A stretch of DNA of 64,000 nt from an uncultured Gammaproteobacteria bacterium (lineage in GTDB: Bacteria > Patescibacteriota > Patescibacteriia > SG8-24). Made by a program: the position numbers and the translations under genes. Shown one piece after another: positions 5,276 to 55,176 of the stretch; the first letter of the stretch is position 1, and each line of letters opens with the position of its first letter. The notes beneath the pieces were generated by a model. That model was not told the origin of the DNA, did not search any database, and saw only the letters and a list, made by a program, of their open reading frames with translations. The DNA lies in NCBI GenBank assembly GCA_964407925.1, contig CAYOXM010000004.1, positions 12,389 through 76,388 of the forward strand, given 5' to 3'.

Positions 5276-7431
<2,156 letters not shown>

Positions 7432-8310
7432 CTATGGACAGCTGATGGTACCGCTCTTCACGATGGAACATTCGCTGAACACGACGAAATCGTATACTCC
7501 CGAAAGCGGCGTCTGCCGCGGCAGGGTGATGAGCAGCTTCTGCTCCACACCGGCGAACGTGCCGCGACTGTCGACTTTGACGCGACCGGGGAGGTTCACC
7601 GGCGCGTTCCCCGCGTCGTACCCGCGGATCTGCACGTTCTCGAGCGCCCCCTTTCGGGCGACGAGCCTGATGCGGTACAGCTTGTCCGGCGCCGCGACAG
7701 GGAGCACGGCGGTACCGCCGACGTACTGGTTCACGCCGATGGCCACGTTCGCCGCGTTGAGCGGGTCCCACGCGCCTCCGGGCTGCCAGCCGATGAGCGT
7801 CGCGCCCAGTACCGTACAGCCGGAGCAGGCATCGGTCCACGTCACCTCGACTTTGGCCACGTTCGCGCTCGCCTGCGTATCGGGATTGAAGAGCGCGATT
7901 TCCGTGAAGGAATCCTCGAGGATGGTCCCCGCGTAAATGACGCTCTCCTTGTCGTCGACCGACCGCTTCCATGTCGCGTTGTTGGTGAGGGCGGTGGCGC
8001 TGCTCACCGACGACGGCAGCGTGCCGGTCCGCCGCGCCTTGAACAGGGCGTCTTCCGCGCCGCTTTCGGCCGCGTAGTACGCGACGATGGCGCTGTCGAT
8101 GACGCGGGTCTGCTGGAGCGAACTCAGGATGAGCGAACCCAGACCGACGGACGATATGACGACCGACGACATGACGATGAGCGCCATGAGCAGGACGGTG
8201 CCACGGGAGTCGAAGGCGGAGGGTCGAGAGTGGTGAGTCTCGCGCGCCGAACCTCGCCCCGCGAAAGGACGTTCCACTTTCCACTTTCCGCTTTCCACTG
8301 GACGTACCAT
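7432..8310 (-). CDS. PilX-like minor pilin / pilus-associated protein (PilX_N-type hydrophobic N-terminus); start uncertain
   Basis: ORF 7432..8592; hydrophobic segment 'SRGTVLLMALIVMSSVVISSVGLG' resembles the PilX N-terminal domain. Last gene of the pilin/pseudopilin run. Confidence 0.55.
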   Translation of the reverse strand: MVRPVESGKWKVERPFAGRGSARETHHSRPSAFDSRGTVLLMALIVMSSVVISSVGLGSLILSSLQQTRVIDSAIVAYYAAESGAEDALFKARRTGTLPSSVSSATALTNNATWKRSVDDKESVIYAGTILEDSFTEIALFNPDTQASANVAKVEVTWTDACSGCTVLGATLIGWQPGGAWDPLNAANVAIGVNQYVGGTAVLPVAAPDKLYRIRLVARKGALENVQIRGYDAGNAPVNLPGRVKVDSRGTFAGVEQKLLITLPRQTPLSGVYDFVVFSECSIVKSGTISCP

Positions 8311-8312
8311 AG

Positions 8313-8939
8313 CTATCTCTTGTATTTCCTGTTCGTCGCCGTCGTCTGGAGGTAAACGACGGAACGCTCGGCCTGCCGCTCCGCCGAGCTTTCGAGCATC
8401 AGGACGGCGGTCACGCGCGGCTGGAGGTTGGCGGCATACGTTCCCGTGTTCGGATCGAACGCGTTCGGATCGGTCACGGGACCGATGTAGAACTTCACGT
8501 TGTCCACCTTCACGCCCTTCGGGGTGATCGGCGCCGGCGTTCCCGTGCCGACGGTCACGAGCAGGCACGGCCTGCTGAGCGTGTCCGCGCAATTCGACTC
8601 GTTGCCGGAGTCGCTCACGTGGAAACGAAGCTTCGTGTTCGTGCTGTCGATGAGCGCGAGTTCCCCCTCCGGGACGCCGATGGCGGTTCCGCGCGAAACG
8701 TAATACGCGTAATCGAGCGTCCCGGTGCGCACCTCGCGGACGATCGCCTCCATGGTGAACCGCGCGTCCGCCTGGACGCGTTCCAGGCCGAACATCTTGC
8801 GCTGCGACTTGTTGGCGAGCAGGAAGATGTCCGACGCCGCGACGACGACGGTCGAGAAGATGCCGAGGACGACGAGCAGCTCCATCAGCGTGAAGCCGCG
8901 CGCCGCCGCGATTTTCCGCGCATGGACGGTCCTCCGCAT
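8313..8939 (-). CDS. type IV pilin-like minor pilin (pseudopilin) with class III signal peptide
   Basis: N-terminus MRRTVHARKIAAARG|FTLMELLVVLGIFS: G-1, F+1, E+5 prepilin peptidase motif. Adjacent to the upstream pseudopilin stop. Confidence 0.8.
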   Translation of the reverse strand: MRRTVHARKIAAARGFTLMELLVVLGIFSTVVVAASDIFLLANKSQRKMFGLERVQADARFTMEAIVREVRTGTLDYAYYVSRGTAIGVPEGELALIDSTNTKLRFHVSDSGNESNCADTLSRPCLLVTVGTGTPAPITPKGVKVDNVKFYIGPVTDPNAFDPNTGTYAANLQPRVTAVLMLESSAERQAERSVVYLQTTATNRKYKR

Positions 8940-8940
8940 A

Positions 8941-9615
8941 TCAGCGCCAATTGAACATCCGCTCTTCGACATCGAGCGTGTGCACGCGGCCGGCGACGGC
9001 CCAGCGCATCTTCGAGGTCACGCGCATGCCGATCTTCTCGGCCGCGCCGCAACCGGCGCCGCTCGTCACGATGGTGTAGCCGCCCGCGCCGTTGTCGCAC
9101 AGGGGGTCGGTGACGATCAGCCGGCTGAACCCCGAGACTACGGTACCCGCGGGCTGCGCGGCAGCCTGGACGAACAACCCGACGGTGGCGCCGCCGCCGC
9201 CCGTGGTGTAACGGTACACGCGCGCCGCGTTCGCGGTGATGACGTTCGCGGCCGCGTAGTTGACCGACCACGCGTTCGTCGACGGCGAAAATTCGGCAAT
9301 GCCCGTGTAATCGGTGCCGTTGTACAGCCCGCTGTCGAACTGCTGGCCCGCCAGCCAGTTCGAGTCGCGTATCGCGCGCACCGCCTCGATGCCTTCGCGC
9401 GCCAAATTGCCGGCCATGATGCTCGCCTCGCTCTCCTTTTCGGCCTTGATGGTCCCCGCGACCAGCGTGAGCGCGGACGACACCGCCGTCACGATGATGC
9501 CCGTCGCGATGATCGCCTCGAGCATGCTCTGCCCCCTTTGGCGAAGTCCGCGACCGCGGCGCGGCCGATTGCGCTCCGGCAGGGCGTTGTCCGAAAACGT
9601 CGCGGCGTGAGGCAT
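8941..9615 (-). CDS. type IV pilin-like minor pilin (pseudopilin)
   Basis: N-terminus ...RQRG|QSMLEAIIATGIIVTAV with E+5, followed by a hydrophobic helix. Confidence 0.75.
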   Translation of the reverse strand: MPHAATFSDNALPERNRPRRGRGLRQRGQSMLEAIIATGIIVTAVSSALTLVAGTIKAEKESEASIMAGNLAREGIEAVRAIRDSNWLAGQQFDSGLYNGTDYTGIAEFSPSTNAWSVNYAAANVITANAARVYRYTTGGGGATVGLFVQAAAQPAGTVVSGFSRLIVTDPLCDNGAGGYTIVTSGAGCGAAEKIGMRVTSKMRWAVAGRVHTLDVEERMFNWR

Positions 9616-9616
9616 A

Positions 9617-10237
9617 TCAGTCGGCGTTGACTTGTCCCGTGATGCGGTTCACCGTCACGTTTTTCGTCTGGCCCGTCGCCGCGTGCCGCGTGGTGACGGA
9701 CGCCACGCCGGTCGCCGTCGAACCGTTGAAGTACACCGAAGGTTTCGGCGGCTCGAAGACGATGTCGAGCGTCGCGCCGGCAGCGGGAGAGAGCGTCGAC
9801 ACCTTCACGCTCGGACCAGGCGACGCCGAGTCCGACCGGATGAGTTCGCCCGCGTCATAGGCGCGGTCGCCGTCAAGGTCGGCGAACAGGATGACGCTGC
9901 GGTCGTCCGGCGACGTCGTCGAGAGCCGGATGCCGTAACCGCGCGGCACTTCGACGACGCACGTGCCGCCGCCGCACTCCGCGCTGAGGCCCGACGGGCA
10001 CGTTTGCAGGTCGCGCGTTCCTCCGCGGCAGAACGCCGTCGTTTGGCCGGCGACGGCGAGCGTCTGCGCGCGCCGGATTGCGGTCGCCACGAGCTGGCTC
10101 GACAGTCGCAGCTCGTCACCCTGCCGGCCCGCGCGGAAATTCGCGGTGACGAACGCCGTCACGACGGCGAAAATGCTCATTGAGAGGAGCATCTCGATGA
10201 GCGTGAACCCGCGCAAAATTCCGCGATGGCGCGTCAT
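9617..10237 (-). CDS. type IV pilin-like minor pilin (GspH/FimT-like pseudopilin)
   Basis: N-terminus MTRHRGILRG|FTLIEMLLSMSIFAVV class III signal. Start overlaps the pilD stop by 4 bp. Confidence 0.8.
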   Translation of the reverse strand: MTRHRGILRGFTLIEMLLSMSIFAVVTAFVTANFRAGRQGDELRLSSQLVATAIRRAQTLAVAGQTTAFCRGGTRDLQTCPSGLSAECGGGTCVVEVPRGYGIRLSTTSPDDRSVILFADLDGDRAYDAGELIRSDSASPGPSVKVSTLSPAAGATLDIVFEPPKPSVYFNGSTATGVASVTTRHAATGQTKNVTVNRITGQVNAD

Positions 10238-43927: not shown

Positions 43928-44719
43928 TCACGGGCAGCCGCACTCCGGATCGAAATCCGTATTGCAGCCGTCAGTACGCGGCGAGAGGTGCATGAGCGTG
44001 TAGCCCCAGCGCCAGCCGAGGCCGCCCGCCATGTATCCGTAGGCGAGCTGGTCGTAGGTGACGTCGAAGACGCCGTTGTAAGGATCGATCACGCGGTACG
44101 TCGACTTGCCGTACGCCGACGGACCGTAACCGCTCACGACGACGACGTGCCCCGCGAACGAGTTCAGGTACCCGACGATGATCGGCCTGCCGTTCGAGAG
44201 CTCGATACGCACTGCGGTCTCGCTGATGCCGCTGTCGAGCGCGGTGCCGTGGATGCCGAGCGTGGTGCCGAGGATGTACTCCATCTGCGGCTGGGGCGCC
44301 GGCTGGTTGCACGGTTGGTAGCCGCAGGCCGCGTAGTTGCAACAGACGGGCTGGGAAAAGCCGGCCTTGTACGAGGCGAGCTGGCACTCGCCCGCAGCGA
44401 TGCCGTAGTAGTTCGCCACCATCGTGATGGTCGCGGCCCAGCACCACTGCTGGCAGTACTGCGCGAGCGGGGTGACCGGAAGCAGGACGCCGTCGGGATC
44501 GGGCGAGAGCCGGTCGCCGCAGTACCCGCCCGGATTCGGGCCGGGTCCCGGTCCGGGTTTCCCAGGAGCATAGCCGCAGTCGCGCGGACAGGTATACGGC
44601 GATTCGTAGTTGTTGCAGGCGCCATCGCCGCAGTACGGCGCGGGCGGTCCGCAACTCGCTGCGACGAGCGCGACGATGGCGACGGCGACGATCGACCAAA
44701 TGGCGTTCAAAGTACGCAT
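43928..44719 (-). CDS. papain-like (C1/C39-like) cysteine peptidase lipoprotein
   Basis: Internal start MRTLNAIWSIVAVAIVALVAAS|CG (lipobox). Gly/Pro-rich linker, 'QQWCWAATITM' (catalytic Cys context), 'AGHVVVVSGYG' (His), 'GWRWGY' (Asn/Trp region). Own promoter and strong SD upstream. Confidence 0.65.
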   Translation of the reverse strand: MRTLNAIWSIVAVAIVALVAASCGPPAPYCGDGACNNYESPYTCPRDCGYAPGKPGPGPGPNPGGYCGDRLSPDPDGVLLPVTPLAQYCQQWCWAATITMVANYYGIAAGECQLASYKAGFSQPVCCNYAACGYQPCNQPAPQPQMEYILGTTLGIHGTALDSGISETAVRIELSNGRPIIVGYLNSFAGHVVVVSGYGPSAYGKSTYRVIDPYNGVFDVTYDQLAYGYMAGGLGWRWGYTLMHLSPRTDGCNTDFDPECGCP

Positions 44720-44765
44720 GAGCCTCCTCCTTGTCTTGTCCGTCCGGCTCTGAACGGGACTGCGC

Positions 44766-44794
44766 AGCGTAGCCGAAAAACGAACTCCCGTCAA
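44766..44794 (-). promoter_or_regulatory. promoter of the papain-like lipoprotein gene (TTGACG-17-TACGCT) with strong SD
   Basis: Minus strand TTGACGGGAGTTCGTTTTTCGGCTACGCT; AAGGAGGAGG 5 nt before the ATG. Confidence 0.5.
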
Positions 44795-44804
44795 CCCGTC
44801 AGGC

Positions 44805-44843
44805 AAAAGAAAACCGCCCGCGCACACGAAAGTGCGGGGCGGT
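44805..44843 (-). terminator. terminator downstream of nadE
   Basis: Minus strand CCGCCCCGCAC-TTTCGTG-TGCGCGGGCGG followed by TTTTCTTTTG. Confidence 0.65.
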
Positions 44844-44851
44844 CGCGCGAA

Positions 44852-46924
44852 TCAGCGAATCGCGTCGGGAACGTTCGCCTCGAGCTCGTCGAGCCACATC
44901 CGTGCCGTGGCGTCCGACGGCATCCGCCAGTCGCCGCGCGGCGAGATTGCCGTGAGGCCGACCTTCGGACCGTCGGGCAGGCACGAACGCTTGAACTGGC
45001 TGCCGACGAAACGCTGAAGGAACAGCCGCAGCCAGCGTTTGACGGTCGCGAGGTCGTACTTCCCGTCGAAGGCGTGGAGCGCCAGCCGCGCGATGCGCGA
45101 CGGACGGTAGCCCCAGCGGACCGTGCAGTAGCCGAAGAAGTCGTGGAGCTCGTACGGCCCGATGATCGACTCCGTCTTCTGCGCGATCTTCCCGTGCTCG
45201 TCCGGCGGAAGGAGTTCCGGGGAAATCTCCGTGTCGAGGACGTCCTTGAGGACCGCCCGGACTTCGGGCTCCTTCGCGTAGATGACTTCCGCCGTCCAGC
45301 CGATGAGGAACGAGATGAGCGTCTTCGGGACGCCCGCGTTCACGCCGTAGTGGCTGGCATGGTCGCCGAACATCGTGCACCAGCCGAGCAGGAGCTCGGA
45401 CAAGTCGCCGGTGCCGAGCACCATCGCGCCCTCGAATCCGGAGACCGAAAAGAGCACGTGCTTCCTCGACCACGCCTGGACGTTCTCGAAGAACGTCCGA
45501 CGGCGCAGGGTCACGACGCTCGCGTCCCCCGCGGCGATGCCGGCCTTGATCTCCGCGATGAAGGCGCCGGCGTCGTCGATGCCGAGGTCACGGAAGGTCT
45601 GCGAGGAGAGGTCGCGGATAGAAATTTCCCGGAACGTCCCGCCGATCGCCTTGATGAGCCGACAGGCGTTCTGATAGGTCCGGTCCGTGGTCCCGAAGCC
45701 GGGCATGGTGACGCCGACGATGTTCGTGCGCGGCAGACCAAGCAGGTCCATGGCATAGGCAGCCACGAGAATCGCCTGCGTCGAGTCCTGCCCGCCGGAG
45801 ACGCCGATGACGAGCTTGCGCATATCCGGGCGGAGCGACTCGAGCTTCCGCGCGAGCGCCGTCGCCTGGATCATGAACGTCTCCCGGCACCGCTCGTCCC
45901 GCCGCTTGGGGTCTGACGGCACGAAGGGGTGCGGTTCGACGGAGCGCTTGAGCGCGCGGTACGTCGCCGCCGCCGCGCCGGATTCCGTACGGTGGCGGAA
46001 CGCCGCGGTGCGGAACGGCGTACGGCGGTCGCTCGCATTCTGGTGGAACGAGCTCTGCCGGATGCGATCCTGTTGCAGCGATTCGAGGTCCACGTCGACG
46101 ACCGCGCTCGCGCCCTTGAGCGAGAACCGTTCGGTCCGCGCGACGAGCGCGCCGCGTTCGGCGACGTACCCGTCGCCGTCCCACGAAAGGTCGGTCGACG
46201 ACTCGCCGAAACCCGCGGCGCTGTACATTTGCACCGCGAGATTGCGTCCGGACGATCCCACGACGAGCTGCTCGCGGTACTCGGCCTTGCCGATCGTGAT
46301 GTTCGACGCCGACAGGTTGGCGAGCACGGTCGCGCCCGCGAGGGCGGCGACGGTCGACGGCGGAATCGGGACCCAGATGTCCTCGCACACTTCCGTATGC
46401 AGGACGAATCCCGAACCGTCGGTCGCCGCGACGAGGACGTCGGTACCGAACGGCACGACGTCCTCGTGGATGCGAATTTCCCTGCTGCGCGCCTCGCATC
46501 CGCGGGCGAAGTGCCGGAGTTCGTAGAACTCGCGGTACTCGGGCGGGTACGACTTCGGCGCGACGGCGATGACGTGGCCGTTCTGGCAGGTGACCGCGCA
46601 GTTGTAGACGGCGTCGTCCACGAGGAGCGGCATGCCTACCGAGAACAGCAGGTCGCGCCAACGGGTCGAATTCGCCAGAATCGAACTCAAGGCGCGCAAG
46701 GCGCCTTCGAGCAGGACCTGCGAATGGAACAGGTCGGCGCAACTGTAACCGGTGAGCCCGAGCTCGGGACAGAGCGCGTAGCAGGCGCCGTCCTTGTATG
46801 CGACGTCGAGCGCGTCGACGTGCGCTGCGGCGTTCGCCGCGGGATCGGCAACGGTCACGCGCGGAATGACGACCGCGACGCGACTGAAACCGTGTTCGAG
46901 TACGTTCAAGAAATCGTCTGACAT
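44852..46924 (-). CDS. nadE: glutamine-dependent NAD+ synthetase (nitrilase-like glutaminase domain + NAD synthetase domain)
   Basis: ~690 aa long-form NadE: N-terminal CN-hydrolase domain, C-terminal PP-loop 'GVSGGQDST'. Start chosen at the second Met (MSDDF), preceded by GAAGGAGG. Confidence 0.9.
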   Translation of the reverse strand: MSDDFLNVLEHGFSRVAVVIPRVTVADPAANAAAHVDALDVAYKDGACYALCPELGLTGYSCADLFHSQVLLEGALRALSSILANSTRWRDLLFSVGMPLLVDDAVYNCAVTCQNGHVIAVAPKSYPPEYREFYELRHFARGCEARSREIRIHEDVVPFGTDVLVAATDGSGFVLHTEVCEDIWVPIPPSTVAALAGATVLANLSASNITIGKAEYREQLVVGSSGRNLAVQMYSAAGFGESSTDLSWDGDGYVAERGALVARTERFSLKGASAVVDVDLESLQQDRIRQSSFHQNASDRRTPFRTAAFRHRTESGAAAATYRALKRSVEPHPFVPSDPKRRDERCRETFMIQATALARKLESLRPDMRKLVIGVSGGQDSTQAILVAAYAMDLLGLPRTNIVGVTMPGFGTTDRTYQNACRLIKAIGGTFREISIRDLSSQTFRDLGIDDAGAFIAEIKAGIAAGDASVVTLRRRTFFENVQAWSRKHVLFSVSGFEGAMVLGTGDLSELLLGWCTMFGDHASHYGVNAGVPKTLISFLIGWTAEVIYAKEPEVRAVLKDVLDTEISPELLPPDEHGKIAQKTESIIGPYELHDFFGYCTVRWGYRPSRIARLALHAFDGKYDLATVKRWLRLFLQRFVGSQFKRSCLPDGPKVGLTAISPRGDWRMPSDATARMWLDELEANVPDAIR

Positions 46925-47052
46925 GCCGCGATCCTCCTTCGCCATGCTGGTTGACGTTGCGTCGTTGTAAGGAGCGGGTCCTCCTTTCTCCGTGCCGCTG
47001 CGGCAAGCGGCGCGGGGAAAGGAGGCCGTGCCCGGAAAGGCACGGCGCGACC

Positions 47053-48015
47053 TCAGTCGTCGATCTGGTCGTCCGCCTCGTCGTCATCGTCGAAGATGAC
47101 GCGGGCGATCGAGCGATTCAGCGAGATGACTTCGAAAGGAGCGAGCTTCTCCACCTTGGCGGCGGTCTTGGGGCAGGAATCCGTGATCCACACCTTGGTA
47201 AATCCGGCATTCAGGAATTTCTTCCATGAGTCCTTCGGACAGCTGGCATGCGTCGCGAAGGCGCTCACCTTCGACGCGCCCGCGTCGAGGAGCGCCTTGC
47301 CGCACTCGATGGTCGTGCCGCCGGACTTGATGATGTCGTCGACGATGACCACGTGACGGCCGCGCACCTCGCCCTCGCGGACCGTGACGATGCGCCTGTC
47401 GCCGTCACGGACCTTGTCGCAGATCACGAGAGGAAACGCGCGGTCGCCCTTCTTCGATCCGTCGAACATCGCCTTGAACCGCTTCCAGGCGCCGATGTCG
47501 GGAAACGCGATCGACACGTCTTCGCCCTCGAGCGCGGTCTTCAGGTACTTCGTGCCGGTCTTGTACCGGGTCACGACGTTGTCGCCGAAGTAGTGCCGCT
47601 GGCCGAGCGCGTGGATGTCGTAGAGCACGACCTCCACGGGACCGCTCCGGCAGAGCGGCGTGGCGGAAAGCATCCGCGCGAACGTCTTCGCGGTGACCAC
47701 TTGGCTTTCGGTGTCGCCGCGCTCGAGCGTCCCGGTCGGGTAGTACGGCATGATCACCTTGATCTCCCTCGCGCCGAGGCGAGGCAAGGTATAGATGACG
47801 CTCAGCTGGCCGAAGACGTCCTCGACCGAGTCGAACGAGGCGAGAAAGGCGGCGCGCTTCTGGCGGATGCGCTCCTCCTTGCCGACGAAGACGTTCGGCC
47901 ACCCGTCCTCGAACGTCTTCCAGGAAATCTTGCCAAGGTGGATCTTGTCGTTCGCCTCGCAGATCTTCTGCGCGAGGCCCTTCATCTGCGGGCAGTGGAA
48001 AAGGACCGCTTCCAT
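47053..48015 (-). CDS. prs: ribose-phosphate pyrophosphokinase (PRPP synthetase) with acidic C-terminal tail
   Basis: Start MEAVLFHCPQMKGLAQKI; PRPP-binding 'VVIVDDIIKSGGT'. Unusual DDDDEADDQIDD tail. Confidence 0.8.
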   Translation of the reverse strand: MEAVLFHCPQMKGLAQKICEANDKIHLGKISWKTFEDGWPNVFVGKEERIRQKRAAFLASFDSVEDVFGQLSVIYTLPRLGAREIKVIMPYYPTGTLERGDTESQVVTAKTFARMLSATPLCRSGPVEVVLYDIHALGQRHYFGDNVVTRYKTGTKYLKTALEGEDVSIAFPDIGAWKRFKAMFDGSKKGDRAFPLVICDKVRDGDRRIVTVREGEVRGRHVVIVDDIIKSGGTTIECGKALLDAGASKVSAFATHASCPKDSWKKFLNAGFTKVWITDSCPKTAAKVEKLAPFEVISLNRSIARVIFDDDDEADDQIDD

Positions 48016-48084
48016 CGTGTTCCCTCCTGACTGATGTCGCACGTGCACACTTCCGCGTTTCGTCCTCGGCAGCCGACGACCGTC

Positions 48085-48125
48085 GGCAACCGAGGAAAAA
48101 CGCGGAGACGGCAGACCGTCTCCGC
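48085..48125 (-). terminator. terminator downstream of pncB, upstream of prs
   Basis: Minus strand GCGGAGACGG-TCTG-CCGTCTCCGC-GTTTTT, then a second nested hairpin and the AGGAGGG SD of prs. Coordinates approximate. Confidence 0.6.
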
Positions 48126-48130
48126 GCGGC

Positions 48131-49393
48131 TCATACCACGCACTCGCGCCGTTCTACGTTGGCGTACCCGAAAATCTTTTTGAAGAGATCGACGGTCGCC
48201 GCGTCGCCCGAGGCCTTGTCGAGATTGTTCGACAGCTTCACGAGCGGATGCCCGTTGGCCTCGGTCGCCTTCACGACGAACGAACCGAACGTCGGCAGTC
48301 CCGTGTCGTTCGAGAGCGTCGTCCCCCATCCCGGCTTCATCGCCTTGAAGCGATTGCGAAAGGTGAGATGGAGCGCGATGACCGAATCGACGTCGAGCCC
48401 GTCGGTCGGGTTCAGGACCTTCGTCCGCGGGTCGACGCCGTGCGACCTGAGGTACGCCTCGAGCATCTCTCCCTCGTGGAACGGATTGCCCGAGTCGACC
48501 TTGTAGACGTTCCAGGCCGCGGCGCGTTCGGCGCCGAAGTCCTCGAAGAACGCCTTGGAGCCGTACGTGTCGAGCACCGCCGTGCTCCAGCGCGGGCCGA
48601 ACGTCGCCATCCAGTCGTCCATGAACTTCATGTGCGACGCGCGGATTTCCGCCCGGAGTCCCCAGTGGATGCCGGAATAGACCATCGGGCCTTGATGCGC
48701 GAACGTGCCGATGACCGGCCAGCCGAGTTCCTTGGCCATCCAGACGTGCGAGATGCCGGCCAGTTGTCCGGGGATTTCCCGGACGAGCGTCTCGTCGATG
48801 AACCGCGACAGTTCGTAGCTGAATTGCCGCCGCAGGCCGAACTCCCCGAACTGGAGGTCCGGGTACTGCCGCAGGAGCTCGATCTTGCGACCGAGCCTGC
48901 GGCCGGCCTCGGCCCAGAGCCGGCGTTCCGTGACGCCATGCTGACGCATCACCCACTCGCCGTTCAGCTTGGTGATGATCGGCAGGATGAAGGTTTCCCA
49001 GTCCATGCCGTCGCACCAGGCGCCATGCGGCTCGATGCGATATGTCGGCCCGTCGGGCGACGCGACCTTCTCGATGTCGATCGCCGACAGCCAGTTCGTC
49101 TGGAGATAGCCGAGATACTCGTCGGGCAGGAAGCCGTTCGGGACGCCGACGCCGAACTTGGCGCGGAGCCACTCGATTTCCTCCGCCGTGTAGGCGAGAC
49201 GGCTGACATGCCCGATCTCCTCGCGGAGCCGGCCCTCGTCAATGCGTTCGCCGAGCACGATGCCCTTGGAGCGGTTCTTGAATCCCCAGCGGACGTGGAC
49301 GTCGCGATGCCGCAGCCAGGCGAAGTAGCCCATGGTGACGTAGTACCAGTCCTTCTGCAGGCGGCTGCTCACGATCGGCTTGTCGTTGGTCAT
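48131..49393 (-). CDS. pncB: nicotinate phosphoribosyltransferase
   Basis: 420 aa; NAPRTase-family length and features. Own SD (GGAGGAG) and TACAAT -10-like box upstream. Confidence 0.85.
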   Translation of the reverse strand: MTNDKPIVSSRLQKDWYYVTMGYFAWLRHRDVHVRWGFKNRSKGIVLGERIDEGRLREEIGHVSRLAYTAEEIEWLRAKFGVGVPNGFLPDEYLGYLQTNWLSAIDIEKVASPDGPTYRIEPHGAWCDGMDWETFILPIITKLNGEWVMRQHGVTERRLWAEAGRRLGRKIELLRQYPDLQFGEFGLRRQFSYELSRFIDETLVREIPGQLAGISHVWMAKELGWPVIGTFAHQGPMVYSGIHWGLRAEIRASHMKFMDDWMATFGPRWSTAVLDTYGSKAFFEDFGAERAAAWNVYKVDSGNPFHEGEMLEAYLRSHGVDPRTKVLNPTDGLDVDSVIALHLTFRNRFKAMKPGWGTTLSNDTGLPTFGSFVVKATEANGHPLVKLSNNLDKASGDAATVDLFKKIFGYANVERRECVV

Positions 49394-49509
49394 GTCTCCT
49401 CCAAAATCGGGGCGTGGTATGGATTGTAACGATCAGGCTTGATCTTCCGCGGGCGACCGGATGTCACCGGCGGAAGAAGAAGGGCAAGCGCGAGGCTTGC
49501 CGTGCCGCG

Positions 49510-50037
49510 CTAGGCGGCGAGCGCGTTCCATTCGCTGCGGAGCATCGACATGCGCACCATGTCGTGATACACGCCGTCGAGCAGGTACTCCTGGCGAAGG
49601 ACGCCCTCCTGGACGAAGCCCATCTTGGCGTACGTCGTCCGTGAACGGACGTTCTCGACGAAAACGTTCAGGTAGACCTTGTTGAGGTCGAGCTGCGTGG
49701 GATCGAAGGCCACGGCGAGCGCCGCGCTGATCGCCGCCCTGCCATACCCCTTGCCGCGGTCATCCTTCCGGAAGACGAGCAGGCCGAGACGGGCGGTGCG
49801 AAGGTGCTCGTCGATCTCATGGAGGCCGACCGTGCCGACGAGGACGCCGTCGGCATCCACGCCCCACAGCCGCTCGGCGGGATTCGCGAGCACCTTTTCG
49901 AGGTATGCGCGCTGCCGTGGGACCGTCACCGGCGCGGAGAAGAACTTGAGGTTCCTCGTCGCCCCGGGATCGAGCGCGTCGACCATGCGCGCGGCGTCAT
50001 CCGCACTCACGGGAACCAACCGGATCGTCATGGCTTC
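49510..50037 (-). CDS. GNAT family N-acetyltransferase (RimJ/RimL-like)
   Basis: Internal start MTIRLVPVSADD of ORF 49510..50511 (the upstream 158 codons are R-rich noise). 'LLVFRKDDRGKGYGRAAI' acetyl-CoA binding motif. Confidence 0.8.
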   Translation of the reverse strand, partial: EAMTIRLVPVSADDAARMVDALDPGATRNLKFFSAPVTVPRQRAYLEKVLANPAERLWGVDADGVLVGTVGLHEIDEHLRTARLGLLVFRKDDRGKGYGRAAISAALAVAFDPTQLDLNKVYLNVFVENVRSRTTYAKMGFVQEGVLRQEYLLDGVYHDMVRMSMLRSEWNALAA

Positions 50038-50042
50038 CTCCT

Positions 50043-51431
50043 TCACGGAAACAGGTCTTCGGCGAGTTTTGCCGCCATGTCGCGATGCGGCGAGAAGGCG
50101 ATCTCGACCGAGGCCACGCGACTCGGCCGAATGCGCATCGCGCAGACTTCGCCGCGGTCCTGGCCGTCGACGAACGCGCGGATCGGACGCTTCCGGAAAT
50201 CGAGCGATGCGATCTCGACCGACGAATCGAGCGAGAGCGGCGCCGACTTCCAGCCGCGCGGCGAGAACACGTTGTTGCCGACGATGAGCCAGCCGCGCGT
50301 GTCGACGAGGAGCGGCGTCGCGCCCATCGAGCGCGCGTAACCGGTGGAACCGGCCGCGGTGCTCACGAGCGCGCCATCCGCGACGAGCTTTTCGATGCGC
50401 GCGTGGCCGTCGACTTTCACCTCGAGCCAGGCGCACTGCCCGGTGCCGCAGGCGACCCACGCGTCGTTGAACGCGTAGGAGCCGAAACGGTCGCCGCGCA
50501 GGTCCTGGCACTCGACGTAAAGCTGCGGGAGCTGCTGCACGCGGAGACTGTCGAAGAAGAAGCCGGGATCCTGCAGGTCGTCGTCGATCTCGTTCAGCAG
50601 ATATCCGCGGTGTCCCGCGTTCAGCCCGACGAACGGCAGGCGGCGACGCCAGTGCTTGCGGATGGCCCGCAGCATGGTGCCGTCGCCGCCGATGGCGACG
50701 AAGCAGTTGGCCGAATCTTCCGTCGTCGCGATGCCGGACAGCCGTTCTGCCAGCGCCTTCGCGCGCGGATTGCGCTCGTCGACGAAGACGAACGGTCGCG
50801 GGTCACCGAGGCGCAAGGTCGTCGTCTGCGACGGCGTGCCGCCGCGGTACAGGTTGTACCGCTCCATGTAGGCCGCGACCTCCGGGACGACCCGGTCGGC
50901 ATACGGTTGCCGCCGGAACGCCCGTTCGCGGACGTCAGTGCTCGAACCGCCGTTCATGCCGTCGATCACGATGCGCTGCGGCGGGAGGTCTGCGGGGTTG
51001 CAGGGGAAGTCGTTGCGCGTCATCACGACGAAGCGGCAGGTACGCCACAGGCGCTCCCCCTCCTCCCACTGCCGCTGGATGGGCGACTGCCCGTCCTTGC
51101 CGCCGGCAATCAGGTCCGTGCCGACCACGTGCCAGATTTCGCCGCCTTCTCGCAAACCGTACAGCTCGTCGAGCCGGTGGGTCTTCGTGAAGGTGGCGTG
51201 CTCGAGGTCGAACAAGTCGACCTGCGCCTTGGGGATGCCGCGGAAGGTCAGGTCCGCCATCACCGCCCGATGGACGGGCTCGATGTCGTTGGTCTGCTCC
51301 TTGTCCGGGCGCGGCCCGCACGGGATGACGATGATCTTTTCGAAATGCGGGACGAGCGCCGCGGCGACGTCGCGATGATGCGCCGCCGACGGGTTGAAAC
51401 TCCCGCCGAACAGGGCGACTTTTGCGGTCAT
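50043..51431 (-). CDS. nadD-nadK: fusion protein: NaMN/NMN adenylyltransferase (NadD-like) N-terminal domain + NAD kinase (NadK) C-terminal domain
   Basis: N-terminus 'VALFGGSFNPSAAHHRD' (nucleotidyltransferase (H/T)xGH-type motif, NadD-like). C-terminal half 'NCFVAIGGDGTMLRAI', 'NDAWV', 'TAAGSTGYARSMGATPL' (NAD kinase GGDG and conserved C-terminal motifs). Confidence 0.8.
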   Translation of the reverse strand: MTAKVALFGGSFNPSAAHHRDVAAALVPHFEKIIVIPCGPRPDKEQTNDIEPVHRAVMADLTFRGIPKAQVDLFDLEHATFTKTHRLDELYGLREGGEIWHVVGTDLIAGGKDGQSPIQRQWEEGERLWRTCRFVVMTRNDFPCNPADLPPQRIVIDGMNGGSSTDVRERAFRRQPYADRVVPEVAAYMERYNLYRGGTPSQTTTLRLGDPRPFVFVDERNPRAKALAERLSGIATTEDSANCFVAIGGDGTMLRAIRKHWRRRLPFVGLNAGHRGYLLNEIDDDLQDPGFFFDSLRVQQLPQLYVECQDLRGDRFGSYAFNDAWVACGTGQCAWLEVKVDGHARIEKLVADGALVSTAAGSTGYARSMGATPLLVDTRGWLIVGNNVFSPRGWKSAPLSLDSSVEIASLDFRKRPIRAFVDGQDRGEVCAMRIRPSRVASVEIAFSPHRDMAAKLAEDLFP

Positions 51432-51463
51432 TGCGCACCTCTTGGATGGAGGTCAAGGAACGT

Positions 51464-51490
51464 TTGCCGCAAGCGACATGCTTGCGGCAA
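51464..51490 (-). promoter_or_regulatory. perfect 11-bp inverted repeat TTGCCGCAAGC-N5-GCTTGCGGCAA upstream of nadD-nadK (candidate operator)
   Basis: Located ~35 nt upstream of the ATG, just upstream of a TTGACC box and the AGAGGTG SD; not followed by a U-run, so unlikely to be a terminator. Confidence 0.5.
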
Positions 51491-51590
51491 GAGAGCTTGC
51501 GCCGACGCCGCCGTCAGCGGAAATTCTCTGAAAAGATATCCGAGGACGGACCGCGCACGGCGGTCCGCCCCGGGGTCGTGACGAAAGGGA

Positions 51591-52376
51591 TCACTTTGCC
51601 GCGAGCTGGTCGGCGACGATGATGCGCACGCCGGCGTCTGCCATGAGCAGCGTCATCTTCTCCTCGAGGCCGGGAATCGGCACCGAGCGCGTCGCGTCCT
51701 TGATGACGCAGACCTCGAAGCCGCGCTTGGCGAAACCGAGGGCGCTGTAGCCGACGCAGTGGGTGAAGGCGTTGCCGTCCATGAAGACGCGCTTCACGCC
51801 CTCGTCCCGCATCTGCTCCGCAAGACCGGTCGTCCTGCCGAGGTTGTCGCTCTCGGCGCTGTACGAGTCGCACAGCGGGTCGTACCCCTTGAGGAGCACG
51901 AGACGGAAACCGAGGTCGCGGAGCGCGGGATGGAGCTCGGCCTCTTCGGAACCGATCCCGCCGTGCTCCGGCCAGAGCGTCTGCTTCTTGTCGGTCGTCC
52001 CCTCGAGGTAGTGCATCAGGTCGAACAGGCTGATGCCTGCCGCGCGAATGACGGCGGACGGATCCGTGCCGTCATTGATCCAGCCGAGCACGCGGTCGAG
52101 GGTGAGGTCGTCGTACGGCTTGAAGCCGACGTACGACGACACCCAGGAGACGTGCCCTCGCGGATGCTGGTCGAGCGAGGCGAACCGCCGCTCGACCGGG
52201 AAGAACGACGTATTCCGGAGGACGACGGGGAGAATCTCGTGGCCGCCGGGTACCGGGAGCCCGCCGCCTTTGACCGGCTTTCCGTCCCAGGAATGGTCGG
52301 GCATGAAAGCGGTCTGGACGTCGGTGTGAAGGATTGCATCGGTCTCCGGATCGATGACGATTGTGCCGTTATGCAT
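51591..52376 (-). CDS. pncA: isochorismatase-family nicotinamidase
   Basis: Internal start MHNGTIVIDPETDA...; 'VQTAFMPDHSWDGKP' and Cys-containing 'THCVGYSALGF' typical of PncA-like nicotinamidases. Confidence 0.7.
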   Translation of the reverse strand: MHNGTIVIDPETDAILHTDVQTAFMPDHSWDGKPVKGGGLPVPGGHEILPVVLRNTSFFPVERRFASLDQHPRGHVSWVSSYVGFKPYDDLTLDRVLGWINDGTDPSAVIRAAGISLFDLMHYLEGTTDKKQTLWPEHGGIGSEEAELHPALRDLGFRLVLLKGYDPLCDSYSAESDNLGRTTGLAEQMRDEGVKRVFMDGNAFTHCVGYSALGFAKRGFEVCVIKDATRSVPIPGLEEKMTLLMADAGVRIIVADQLAAK

Positions 52377-52407
52377 CGGACGTTCCTTTCGTGGTGGAAG
52401 GAGCTGA

Positions 52408-52460
52408 TATCCGCCGACTTTGGCGAAAAAACGCGAAGGCGGATAACGCCGAACGCTATC
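52408..52460 (-). promoter_or_regulatory. inverted repeats upstream of pncA (TATCCGCC-N22-GGCGGATA; GATAACGCC-G-AACGCTATC): candidate NrtR/regulator site
   Basis: Two overlapping IR systems in the 119-nt nrtR-pncA gap; the second is a 9-1-9 IR with one mismatch. Confidence 0.4.
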
Positions 52461-52495
52461 GCGTTTCTGACCTTCCGTCAAGGCGGCCGACCGCC

Positions 52496-53167
52496 TTAAA
52501 AGAGCGCGATGTCCGCCTTCCTGCGCGACCGGAAACGGTACAACGCCGCGGGACGATGCGCGCCGCCGCGATCACGCTTTCCGGTATCGGCGAGAAGGTC
52601 GAGGGAGAGGATTTTTTTGCGGAAGTTCCGCTTGTCGAGCGTACGGCCGAGGATGGCCTCGTACGTCGCCTGGAGCGCCGAGAGCGTGAATGCCTCGGGA
52701 AGCAGGCTCCACGCCACGTTCGCGTACTGCAACTTCGCCCGGACGCGCCCGAGCGCGTACCGGAGCATGGACTCGTGGTCGTATGCGAGCCTCGGCAGCG
52801 CGCCGACGGGCCAGAAGCGCACGTCGGCGTACTTCTCGGAGGTACGCAAGCGGACGCCGTCGTGCGGCACGAGCGCGAATGAAGCGATGCTCACCACGCG
52901 GCCGAACGGGTCGCGGCGGGGATCGTCAAACGTGGCGAGCTGCTCGAGGTAGAGGTCGGTGACGCCGGTCTGCTCGCGCAGGATGCGGCGCGCGGCGTCC
53001 TCCGACGTCTCGTCGTCGCCCAGCAGGCCGCCCGGCATCGCCCACCGCCCGGCGAACGGCTTCTTTTTCATCTGGATGAGCAGGACGTGCAGCTCCCCTC
53101 CGCGCACCGTAAAAATGGCGGCATCGACGGCGACCTTGATGTCCTGAGACGAGGGGTGGCGCGGCAT
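52496..53167 (-). CDS. nrtR: Nudix-related transcriptional regulator of NAD metabolism (NrtR-like): Nudix domain + C-terminal winged-helix-like domain
   Basis: 223 aa; N-terminal Nudix fold with degenerate Nudix box (GRWAMPGGLLGDDETSEDAARRILREQTG), ~80-aa C-terminal extension ending ...ALYRF. Sits at the head of the pncA/nadD/pncB/nadE cluster. Confidence 0.6.
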   Translation of the reverse strand: MPRHPSSQDIKVAVDAAIFTVRGGELHVLLIQMKKKPFAGRWAMPGGLLGDDETSEDAARRILREQTGVTDLYLEQLATFDDPRRDPFGRVVSIASFALVPHDGVRLRTSEKYADVRFWPVGALPRLAYDHESMLRYALGRVRAKLQYANVAWSLLPEAFTLSALQATYEAILGRTLDKRNFRKKILSLDLLADTGKRDRGGAHRPAALYRFRSRRKADIALF

Positions 53168-53262
53168 GGTCGTTAGTTAGTGTTCGATGGACGTAAAGTA
53201 GCACCACCCGCCCCGGCGGTCAACCCGCGGCAAAGAAAAAAGGGCCGACGTCGTCGGACCTC

Positions 53263-53913
53263 TCAGTGCGCCGCGCGCGCCGGCACTTCGCCGCCGTTCG
53301 GCAGACAGCAACGGGCGCGCATCCATCCCTTCCCCGCCCCGAAAGCCTCGTGCGGGAACCAGACGACGGCGTCCTGAAGCACCATGCCGCCCCTGCCGAC
53401 CCGGGAATTGCCGCGGACGAAACTCAGCCGAAGCGGCCGCAGTTCCTCCTCGACGACCTGCGCTACGGCAGTCACCGTCAGCGCGCCGAGCAGATGCCGC
53501 TCGTCGCCGCGGGCGCCGCCGTCGACCGCGATGCACGGCGTCGGATCGATTTCCGCCACGGGACGCCGGTCGCGCGTCGTGAGCGCGTCCTTCCCGGGGT
53601 CATAGACGCACCAGGCCGCGCCGAGCAGGTACACGCGCAGCACGAGCGGACCGGTGACGATCACCTGATGGTCAGGCGCGGCCTCGTGGTACTTCCGGAT
53701 GCCCGCCCACTTCTCGTACGACTGCCTGCGGGCGGGGTCGGGCCACGGGACGGCGGCGTCGGACCACGTCGCGACGCCGTTGCCGAAACGCTTCGCGAGA
53801 CGGCCGACGAGCGTCGAGTACGCGCCGAAGACGCGCGCGAAGTTGAACAGCGGACCCTCGACGAGTGCCGCTCCGCCGGAAATGACGTAACGGCTCGGAC
53901 CGGTCATGCGCAT
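53263..53913 (-). CDS. conserved hypothetical protein, paralog A (WC(V)YDP ... FPH motif family)
   Basis: 216-aa ORF; clear paralogy to 54517..55176 (ALVEG..F, WP(D/E)P, YLLG..WCV(Y/H)DP, (W/T)FPH..(F/Y)G.GKG). Followed by a terminator. Confidence 0.6.
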   Translation of the reverse strand: MRMTGPSRYVISGGAALVEGPLFNFARVFGAYSTLVGRLAKRFGNGVATWSDAAVPWPDPARRQSYEKWAGIRKYHEAAPDHQVIVTGPLVLRVYLLGAAWCVYDPGKDALTTRDRRPVAEIDPTPCIAVDGGARGDERHLLGALTVTAVAQVVEEELRPLRLSFVRGNSRVGRGGMVLQDAVVWFPHEAFGAGKGWMRARCCLPNGGEVPARAAH

Positions 53914-54027
53914 TCCTTTCGCAAGGAGCTGTCGGTAAGGATGGCAGGATTACCGCCCTTGTCAACGCCCTGTTCCCCTTCCCGCGGCACGATGTTATCA
54001 TCGGCGCACCGCCCTACGGAGAACGCC

Positions 54028-54453
54028 ATGAAAACGAGAGTCGAGGGAAAACGCGTCATCGTGAGCTTGGAGCGCGGCGATGCCGTGCGCGCGTCGGTCG
54101 AGGCCGTCGCCAAGGAGCGCGGCATTCTCGGCGCCGCGGTGACCGCCATCGGCGCGATCGAGAATCCGGAGCTCGGTTTCTACCGGCTCGACGAAAAACG
54201 CTACGAACGCAAGCGGTTCCCCGGCATCTGGGAGCTGGTGAGCCTGCTCGGCAATGTCACGGCGAAGGACGGCGAGCCGTTCATGCACGCGCACGTCGCC
54301 ATCGGCGGTCCGGATTTCGCCGTCTACGGCGGCCACCTCTTCGACGCCACGACCGGCGTCGTCGTGGAGCTCGTCATCGAACCGTTCGACCGCCCGCTCG
54401 AACGCGTCCTCTGCGAGGACATCGGCCTCCACCGCTGGGAGCCGCAACGCTGA
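54028..54453 (+). CDS. PPC/DUF296 domain protein
   Basis: Internal Met of the GC-frame ORF 53266..54453; 141 aa with PPC-domain features (AIGAIENPELGFY; HAHVAIGGPDFAVYGGHLFDATTGVVVELVI). GGAG SD 9 nt upstream; terminator downstream. Confidence 0.7.
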   Translation: MKTRVEGKRVIVSLERGDAVRASVEAVAKERGILGAAVTAIGAIENPELGFYRLDEKRYERKRFPGIWELVSLLGNVTAKDGEPFMHAHVAIGGPDFAVYGGHLFDATTGVVVELVIEPFDRPLERVLCEDIGLHRWEPQR

Positions 54454-54455
54454 TA

Positions 54456-54483
54456 CCCCCCCGCTGCCGCGGGGGCTTTTTTT
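54456..54483 (+). terminator. terminator after the PPC/DUF296 gene
   Basis: CCCCCCGC-TGC-CGCGGGGG-CTTTTTTT. Confidence 0.8.
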
Positions 54484-54485
54484 AA

Positions 54486-54512
54486 AAAAACAGCCCCGCA
54501 AAATGCGGGGCG
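54486..54512 (-). terminator. terminator after paralog B (convergent with the previous)
   Basis: Minus strand GCCCCGC-ATTTT-GCGGGGC followed by TGTTTTTTT. Confidence 0.75.
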
Positions 54513-54516
54513 CCGG

Positions 54517-55176
54517 TCAGTTCGCCTTCTGGTCCGTATCCGCAGGGTCGCCGTCGGGTTCGACGCAGCGCACGCGGACGAAGTCGCGGCCTTTGCCGTA
54601 GACGGCGTGCGGGAACGTCACGTACGCGACGAGCAGCGCGCGTCCGGTGGCGCGATCGACTCGCGGCCCGCTCGCCTCGAAAGCGAGCCCGAGATGCGCA
54701 AGATTCGCCGTGACGATACGGCGCGCGACAGCGATGTCGCGCTCGTCCGCCATGCCGTACTGGTTCGGCCCGATCTGCTCGCCGTAAATGCAGACGACCG
54801 GTTGCGGCTCGAGGTCGGCGACGTCCTCCCCGAGCGGCGTGGTGATGCGTCCGGTCGCGGGATCATGCACGCACCAGGTCTTGCCGAGCAGGTACGCCTT
54901 CACGGTCATCCTGCCCATCACATGCACGAGCGCCTCGTCCACGACCTCGTAGAGTTCCGCCATCCCGTACCAGGCCTTGCGTGCCGTCGCCTTTCCCGGC
55001 TCGGGCCAAGGAATCTTTTTCTGATGCGCCGGGTGGGCCGTCGAAAGCGTCGTCGCGCCGTCAGCGAACTCCTCGGCGAGCGCGCCGACGAGCTCCTCGT
55101 AGGCATCGAGGATGACGTTCAGGTCGAAACGATTTCCCTCAACGAGGGCGTAACCGTGCATCACGCGCGGGTTCAT
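54517..55176 (-). CDS. conserved hypothetical protein, paralog B
   Basis: C-terminal 219 codons of the artefactual 1167-aa ORF 54517..58020 (a different frame from PBP1A): MNPRVMHGYALVEGNRFDL...WCVHDP...TFPHAVYGKGRDF; paralog of 53263..53913; terminator downstream. Confidence 0.6.
   Translation of the reverse strand: MNPRVMHGYALVEGNRFDLNVILDAYEELVGALAEEFADGATTLSTAHPAHQKKIPWPEPGKATARKAWYGMAELYEVVDEALVHVMGRMTVKAYLLGKTWCVHDPATGRITTPLGEDVADLEPQPVVCIYGEQIGPNQYGMADERDIAVARRIVTANLAHLGLAFEASGPRVDRATGRALLVAYVTFPHAVYGKGRDFVRVRCVEPDGDPADTDQKAN

Follow-up and report, generated by a model that had tools for sequence, protein, structure and literature searches.

Why should a single protein carry domains for two steps of a biosynthetic route that are separated by the reaction of a third enzyme? 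This question is posed by a gene in a stretch of 64,000 nucleotides (nt) from an uncultured bacterium (assembly GCA_964407925.1, contig CAYOXM010000004.1, positions 12,389 to 76,388), which we refer to in its full length as the window. The gene, here termed nadD~nadK, joins a domain of the nicotinate mononucleotide (NaMN) adenylyltransferase type (NadD) to an NAD kinase (NadK) domain. Both enzymes are essential, occur almost universally and serve as targets for antibiotics, but as a rule NadD and NadK are made as two distinct proteins. We found that their fusion is a genuine, ancient and widespread architecture.

A NadD-NadK fusion conserved over its full length

The gene, its two domains and their signature motifs are located as follows (positions in the window).

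50043–51431, minus strand: nadD~nadK fusion gene, 462 amino acids (aa) plus TGA stop (open reading frame list, sequence, Pfam and NCBIfam domains)
50832–51431, minus strand: NadD-like adenylyltransferase domain, residues 1–200 (TIGR00482, PDB phmmer search, Foldseek)
51375–51407, minus strand: GGSFNPSAAHH, a modified (H/T)xGH ATP-binding motif, residues 9–19, aligning to GGTFDPIHNGH of mycobacterial NadD
50046–50825, minus strand: short-type NAD kinase domain, residues 203–462 (PRK04761, PDB matches, Foldseek)
50679–50690, minus strand: GGDG catalytic motif, residues 248–251 (read from the sequence)

The single 462-aa polypeptide described in an earlier, sequence-only reading of this DNA is encoded by an intact reading frame running without internal stop from an ATG at 51431 to the TGA at 50043–50045 on the minus strand, with an AAGAGG ribosome-binding site 6 nt 5' of the start codon. 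The frame is not a chance one: an identical protein is already present in a public protein collection, and the best 120 homologues are 455–492 aa long, cover 98–100% of the query and are 50–85% identical to it. With a threshold of E <= 1e-30, an exhaustive search of 1.84 billion cluster representatives retrieved 275 clusters; of the best 150, >100 are of full length. A set of species-representative genomes contains 294 stretches encoding a relative, some of them on complete chromosomes. The same fusion, which that reading had proposed to look for in related genomes, was found at like length in >200 homologues. The fused form is the norm among them, and no frameshift or stop, as considered in the same reading, restores two separate genes.

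There are at least 229 full-length homologues (~460 aa), and conservation was assessed in an alignment of 229 with identities down to 30%. Mean identity to the query is 49.5% for one half and 48.7% for the other, and the divergence of the two halves is correlated (r = 0.75). Selection therefore acts on both halves to a comparable degree and on the protein as a single unit. At the junction, the sequence RYxLYRG is conserved, and the full-length AlphaFold2 (AF2) model is continuous and confident through it (predicted local distance difference test, pLDDT, 91; predicted template modelling score, pTM, 0.90), the pTM value suggesting a defined packing of the NadD and kinase domains against each other. 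That the fusion is an artefact, i.e., that a sequencing frameshift or a misassembly has merged two neighbouring genes, can be practically dismissed: nothing was found in its favour, architecture and length are the same in >200 homologues, the junction is conserved and the model is confident across it. The homologues stem from independent assemblies, among them complete chromosomes and those of cultured strains (e.g., Brevifollis gellanilyticus NBRC 108608).

No natural two-gene version was found among the homologues, and apparent split copies are rare, the ones examined coming from two loci. In one of them (L084), an in-frame TAG (3875–3877 of that locus) takes the place of the Glu codon of a conserved IRERLFR sequence in an otherwise intact fusion gene and could be a pseudogene mutation, a sequencing error or a recoded stop; in the other one (L085), the gene is broken at the same region by what looks like a frameshift. 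Short 'stand-alone' matches, considered as a possible sign of a recent fusion, are contig-end fragments (the source contig of the 'stand-alone' half P0229, e.g., is only 1035 bp long).

The N-terminal ~190 aa had been proposed to be NadD-like because of a GGSFNPxxxxH motif. The motif is present at residues 9–19, and profile, PDB and fold searches place the domain at residues 1–200. Pfam CTP_transf_like matches residues 7–170 above its gathering score, and the NCBIfam NadD model TIGR00482 aligns over its entire length (protein 7–195, profile 1–194 of 194, E = 1e-16). In a phmmer search of PDB, NadD of Mycobacterium abscessus and M. tuberculosis were aligned over residues 5–199, including the C-terminal ...LY helix. 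The AF2 model of this domain alone (pLDDT 92) shows the Rossmann-like nucleotidyltransferase fold with the NadD-specific C-terminal helical subdomain, and its best 50 Foldseek matches in PDB are all NadD proteins (template modelling score, TM, 0.72–0.85). Every significant NCBIfam or PDB sequence match of this half is NadD as well; the few weak PDB matches above E = 0.005 include PPAT. A cytidylyltransferase or another nucleotidyltransferase, which the sequence-only reading had considered for this domain, is excluded by these NCBIfam, PDB sequence and Foldseek matches.

Most of the residues expected in a NadD active site are retained in the 229 homologues. H19, the second (catalytic) His of HxGH, occurs in 94% and D106 in 89% of them, and the SSTxxR motif is present as GSSTDVRER (S164 in 92%, R168 in 97%). 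W122, invariant in an alignment of 30 sequences (A1), aligns with W117 of M. tuberculosis NadD, which we take to be the Trp that stacks on the pyridine ring. PCGPRPDK stands where usual NadD has a PPHK-type motif.

The C-terminal ~270 aa had been read as an NAD kinase with GGDG, NDAWV-like and Gly-rich motifs, and all three are indeed found in a domain spanning residues ~203–462: besides GGDG, there are NDAWV at residues 322–326 and the Gly-rich sequence ADGALVSTAAGSTGYARSMGATP at residues 351–373. Pfam NAD_kinase (PF01513, residues 228–278) and NAD_kinase_C (PF20143, residues 333–426) both pass their gathering scores (33.0 vs 25.5 and 23.9 vs 23.7, respectively), and the best NCBIfam match among NAD kinases is PRK04761, a short 'alphaproteobacterial' NAD kinase (protein 216–459, profile 10–253 of 257, E = 1e-39). 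NAD kinases of known structure match this half in a PDB sequence search with E values down to 9e-12. Its predicted two-domain fold resembles those of the M. tuberculosis, Thermotoga maritima, Listeria monocytogenes and Pseudomonas aeruginosa NAD kinases (target-normalised TM 0.73–0.82), and NAD or NADH kinases make up all 50 of the best PDB fold matches listed. Profiles, PDB sequence searches and predicted folds thus each uphold the assignment of both halves. GGDG is conserved at 98–100%, N322 and D323 of the ND motif at 93%, and the residues of the DG...GSTxY motif at 86–100% (D352 96%, G361 100%, S362 96%, T363 89%, Y365 94%).

A salvage gene cluster and the probable function of the fusion

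The fusion gene is the third gene of a cluster with the order nrtR-pncA-[nadD~nadK]-GNAT-pncB-prs-nadE. All seven genes are located on the minus strand, from 53167 down to 44852, with gaps of 11–159 nt.

52496–53167, minus strand: nrtR, with which the cluster begins, for a Nudix-related regulator (Pfam NUDIX and NrtR_WHD, 94.9 bits)
51591–52481, minus strand: pncA-like nicotinamidase, 296 aa (Pfam Isochorismatase; NCBIfam nicotinamidase/pyrazinamidase PRK11609, E = 4e-21)
49510–50031, minus strand: GNAT acetyltransferase (Pfam Acetyltransf_3 and Acetyltransf_1)
48131–49393, minus strand: pncB-like nicotinate phosphoribosyltransferase (Pfam NAPRTase_N and NAPRTase; NCBIfam PRK05321, E = 1e-78, under the curated cut-off)
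47053–48048, minus strand: prs, ribose-phosphate diphosphokinase for phosphoribosyl pyrophosphate (PRPP) supply (TIGR01251, 136.7 bits vs a cut-off of 113; Pfam Pribosyltran_N)
44852–46945, minus strand: nadE, glutamine-dependent NAD+ synthase (Pfam CN_hydrolase and NAD_synthase; PRK02628, 821 bits vs a cut-off of 473)

Together, these genes encode a route from nicotinamide via nicotinate, NaMN, nicotinate adenine dinucleotide (NaAD) and NAD to NADP, including the supply of PRPP. The fused activities correspond to its third and fifth steps, and the cluster supplies all others. Hidden Markov models built from each half matched nothing in the window except the fusion itself, i.e., no second nadD or nadK was detected there. 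The sequence-only reading had pointed out that NadE acts between the two fused activities, and nadE was found in the same cluster. In the form suggested along with this, a channelling from NaMN to NADP is unlikely, since the intervening step belongs to NadE, a protein of its own.

We regard it as rather probable that the fusion is a bifunctional NaMN adenylyltransferase/NAD kinase which serves two non-consecutive reactions in an NrtR-type salvage operon. In this scheme, the substrate of the N-terminal domain would be a pyridine mononucleotide, most likely NaMN, which it would adenylylate to NaAD; the separate NadE from the same cluster would amidate NaAD to NAD, and the short-type kinase domain would phosphorylate NAD to NADP. 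The benefit of the fusion would most plausibly lie in expressing and assembling the NAD-forming and the NADP-forming capacity together at a fixed 1:1 ratio. As NAD kinases form oligomers, a kinase core would display the NadD domains. A preference for NaMN is suggested by the PncA, PncB and NadE neighbours and by the lack of another nadD in the operon.

The same association recurs elsewhere, as seen in 80 related genome loci analysed within ±10 kb of each homologue. Same-strand neighbours include NrtR in 12 loci, PncA in 9, PncB in 8 (a type-II NAPRTase in 6 more), NadE in 9 and Prs in 4, and at least one neighbour of these types is present in 19 of the 80. The order is nrtR-pncA-fusion-pncB-nadE in L009 and pncA-fusion-pncB-nadE in L007. 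A separate nadD was not detected in the related loci with the queries used.

This gene set and this regulator family are known from regulons of NrtR that belong to the 'universal plus salvage I' type; Clostridium acetobutylicum and P. aeruginosa, for instance, have the order nrtR-pncA-pncB-nadD-nadE. The paper describing them never mentions NAD kinase (PMC2330246). Genes of this set and regulator family accompany the fusion not only in the window but also in 12 of the 80 related loci. However, in the window the place of nadD is held by nadD~nadK, so that the cluster reaches NADP. Furthermore, prs is added, as is, in the window, a GNAT gene.

How far the proposed bifunctionality holds

Several observations weigh against two ordinary activities in one operon-borne protein. 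Neither half reaches an equivalog cut-off: the NadD half scores 61.5 bits with TIGR00482 (cut-off 112.45), and the kinase half 136 bits with PRK04761 (cut-off 211). The protein therefore represents a divergent subfamily, and its NadD half, though complete, is not an equivalog by the NCBI rule. The first His/Thr of (H/T)xGH is replaced by Ala in the fusion and by Gly or Ala in ~80% of the homologues (a minority have a canonical HxGH or TxxH), and a conserved insertion of 8 residues (112–119) precedes W122, the presumed pyridine-stacking Trp; either change could alter activity or specificity. Moreover, 61 of the 80 loci, mostly from Verrucomicrobiota, have no NAD-related neighbours and show unrelated genes in lineage-specific synteny; in these loci, the fusion looks like a vertically inherited core gene. 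Finally, in a distant branch of the family (33–43% identity), H19 is replaced by Asp or Gln in several members (P0181, P0213, P0230, P0232), and an extra NadD-type domain is present upstream in three clusters (P0181, P0213, P0251; recognised by Pfam in P0213 and P0251), the one in P0181, which was scanned with NCBIfam, being canonical (TIGR00482, 128 bits, above the cut-off). This suggests that the NadD-like domain can turn non-catalytic.

Could the N-terminal domain instead be mainly an NMN adenylyltransferase (NMN, nicotinamide mononucleotide), so that the protein catalyses the consecutive steps from NMN via NAD to NADP, possibly with a direct hand-over of NAD? The eukaryotic dual-specificity enzymes are characterised by the motif GSFNPITxxH, and GSFNP of the fusion is nearer to it than to the bacterial GGTFDPxHxGH. 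The insertion beside the presumed stacking Trp could change the specificity, fusions often join consecutive steps, and the pTM of 0.90 suggests a fixed arrangement of the domains. Nevertheless, the recurring neighbours PncA, PncB and NadE constitute the deamidated route, which needs a NaMN-specific step, whereas no NadV, NadR, PnuC or other NMN-producing gene recurs among the related loci. The best sequence and fold matches are, furthermore, all to NaMN-preferring bacterial NadD. We therefore consider this alternative unlikely, though it fares best among those weighed here.

Slightly less credit is due to the proposal that one of the domains is non-catalytic and serves in ligand sensing or scaffolding, e.g., an NAD(P)(H)-binding kinase fold exerting feedback on NadD, or a degenerate NadD regulating the kinase. 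The replaced first His of HxGH in most members would fit it, as would the distant branch with its H19 exchange and, in P0181, P0213 and P0251, an added NadD domain. In addition, there are crystal structures of NadD from M. tuberculosis with bound NADP (4s1o, 4ybr, 5das), i.e., NadD folds can bind the product of the kinase. But the clade to which the window protein belongs keeps the catalytic residues of both domains at ~90–100%, its two halves evolve at equal rates, and its salvage operons contain no other nadD.

It is improbable that the two active sites act in sequence on the same molecule, be it by phosphorylation of NaAD to nicotinate adenine dinucleotide phosphate (NAADP) with subsequent amidation, or by formation of NAD from NMN and its transfer to the kinase. 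If true, this would mean a new order of the final steps of NADP synthesis or a direct hand-over of NAD to the kinase, and a dedicated pathway committing salvaged pyridine to the NADP pool over the NAD pool. The first of these variants, in which the kinase would convert NaAD to NAADP and NadE or another amidase would yield NADP, is very improbable when taken for itself. Its appeal is that domain 2 would act on what domain 1 produces, and NadE is frequently encoded nearby; yet the kinase half is an ordinary NAD kinase family member and carries the standard motifs, known NAD kinases use NaAD poorly, and we know of no precedent for a phosphorylation of NaAD to NAADP en route to NADP.

The most probable function of the fusion is the sum of two ordinary activities. 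If they are ordinary, the outcome is a useful correction of annotation and a neat operon rather than a new principle. A stable fusion across several phyla means that some lineages physically tie NADP formation to NAD synthesis. In NrtR-type operons, this would place NADP supply under the same (presumably ADP-ribose-responsive) control as nicotinamide salvage, a link that we did not find described in the NrtR literature. The fusion is also a test case for a possible partitioning of salvaged pyridine between the NAD and NADP pools of cells and, with its distant branch, for a possible shift of NadD-type domains to another specificity or to a regulatory role.

Relatives, control elements and neighbouring genes

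Compared with the NadD of E. coli, Bacillus subtilis, B. anthracis and M. tuberculosis, the fusion shares full-length homology over residues 1–200 and the predicted fold (TM up to 0.85), as well as the second His of HxGH, the GxD motif, the Trp aligned with W117, the SSTxxR motif and the C-terminal ...LY helix. It differs by Gly or Ala in place of the first HxGH His, by an additional His where HxGH has its Gly, by PCGPRPDK, by the 8-residue insertion and by a score under the TIGR00482 cut-off, and this divergent NadD type was seen only fused to NAD kinase. With short-type NAD kinases (PRK04761, L. monocytogenes NADK1, T. maritima NadK), it has in common the two-lobed fold, GGDG, N(E/D), DG...GST(A)Y and a length of ~260 aa; it is ~30% identical to the Paracoccus and Sinorhizobium enzymes and adds the N-terminal NadD domain. 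The joining of an NAD enzyme to a second NAD-related activity follows the same principle as in NadR, NadM-Nudix and the archaeal NADP phosphatase/NAD kinase (PRK14076), but the partner domains differ. NadR consists of an NMN adenylyltransferase, a P-loop ribosylnicotinamide kinase and a helix-turn-helix domain, and its kinase acts before the adenylyltransferase, whereas the fusion has a true NAD kinase fold acting two steps after it.

The sequence-only reading did not recognise a NadD-NadK fusion as characterised; in agreement with this, a full-text literature search found no paper on it. None of the models of these multi-domain enzymes matches the protein as a whole, and NCBIfam has no dedicated model for it, although each domain belongs to a well-known family or is at least a divergent relative of one. 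The architecture is neither rare nor hidden, given that automatic annotation, e.g., by JGI, already labels some members with both activities ('NAD kinase/nicotinic acid mononucleotide adenylyltransferase'). Other existing labels are 'nicotinate nucleotide adenylyltransferase' and 'NAD(+)/NADH kinase'; the latter hides what may be the sole nadD in a pathway reconstruction, so that the treatment of these proteins in annotation is at issue.

Relatives of the fusion are found in Verrucomicrobiota (B. gellanilyticus, L051; Prosthecobacter, Chthoniobacter, Luteolibacter, Akkermansiaceae) and, among other phyla, also in Acidobacteriota, Planctomycetota, Myxococcota and Bdellovibrionota. Among 50,697 phage and 72,556 plasmid records there was no full-length match, and a phage or plasmid origin was rejected on these records; only the kinase half matched, to ordinary NAD kinases with ~25–32% identity. 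A different, nucleotide-related context was seen in a Planctomycetota metagenome-assembled genome (JAOSKN010000003.1, L003), where the gene for an 891-aa A_deaminase and NUDIX protein (7329–10004) overlaps the start of the fusion by 4 nt, with His_Phos_1 and CN_hydrolase genes just upstream. The members of the distant branch (P0181, P0213, P0251, P0176, P0186, P0196, P0230, P0232) mostly have an N-terminal extension of ~90 aa that is weakly MazG-like (E ~1e-3, matched in 2 of the 3 sequences tested), and one cluster of this branch adds a CobT-like phosphoribosyltransferase domain.

As to control, the nrtR product matches the NCBIfam 'ADPR responsive transcriptional repressor' with E = 4e-42, under the curated cut-off, and the cluster is probably regulated by an ADP-ribose-responsive NrtR repressor. 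A palindrome lies in the leader of the fusion gene.

51464–51490, no strand assigned: perfect 27-bp palindrome TTGCCGCAAGC-GACAT-GCTTGCGGCAA, 33–59 nt upstream of the fusion ATG

Its core, GCAAGC-N5-GCTTGC, occurs exactly twice in the window (0.32 copies expected), both times inside the cluster; the second copy (49484–49500) is located between the GNAT gene and pncB, upstream of the latter. Both could be operators or RNA (leader) hairpins. These are the only strong palindromes seen, and they lack the GT-N7-AC core of the published 21-bp NrtR operators; as NrtR motifs vary by lineage, this speaks neither for nor against control by NrtR. No operator of the GT-N7-AC type was recognised upstream of the cluster genes, and Rfam gave nothing relevant in 44000–54600, i.e., no riboswitch or other known RNA in the 159-nt leader of the fusion gene. 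A hairpin followed by a T-rich run (51538–51570) lies directly after pncA, and similar structures follow pncA in L004, L005 and L061. Because of this hairpin and T-run, nrtR-pncA and the genes from the fusion to nadE may be separate transcription units. The leaders in L004, L005 and L061 share a short element, CGCGGCGTGCC(C/T)CG, which the leader in the window does not contain.

Of the remaining cluster proteins, the pncA-like one (296 aa) is longer than typical nicotinamidases (~210 aa) and appears to carry a large insertion. Profiles match its C-terminal 130 residues only; its translation shows the motifs DVQ...KG...DSYS...C, with the catalytic Asp motif DVQ visible in the N-terminal part. 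The GNAT gene begins 11 nt past the stop codon of the fusion and has its own AGGAGG site. Its best NCBIfam match, spermidine N1-acetyltransferase, is well under the cut-off, and a homologue was present in only 1 of the 80 related loci (L064), so this gene is not a conserved part of the cluster. We also considered whether prs and pncB encode the phage-type NARP1 enzymes Adps and Namat. This was rejected: Namat is Nampt-like (PMC12774641), whereas the window protein is of the PncB type (PRK05321/TIGR01514), and prs passes the ordinary TIGR01251 cut-off. NARP3, a PnuC/NadR system, is unrelated to the cluster.

Just upstream of nrtR, there are genes for two paralogous proteins of 216 aa (53263–53913, minus strand) and 219 aa (54517–55176, minus strand), which are 35% identical to each other (E = 2e-38) and have no sequence match in Pfam, NCBIfam, PHROG or PDB. 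In both L005 and L061, homologues occupy the corresponding place upstream of nrtR, and these proteins may be an uncharacterised companion of the NAD cluster. At the other end, 24 nt downstream of nadE and on the same strand, a gene (43928–44827, minus strand) encodes a papain-like cysteine protease (Peptidase_C70, AvrRpt2-like, and C39_2).

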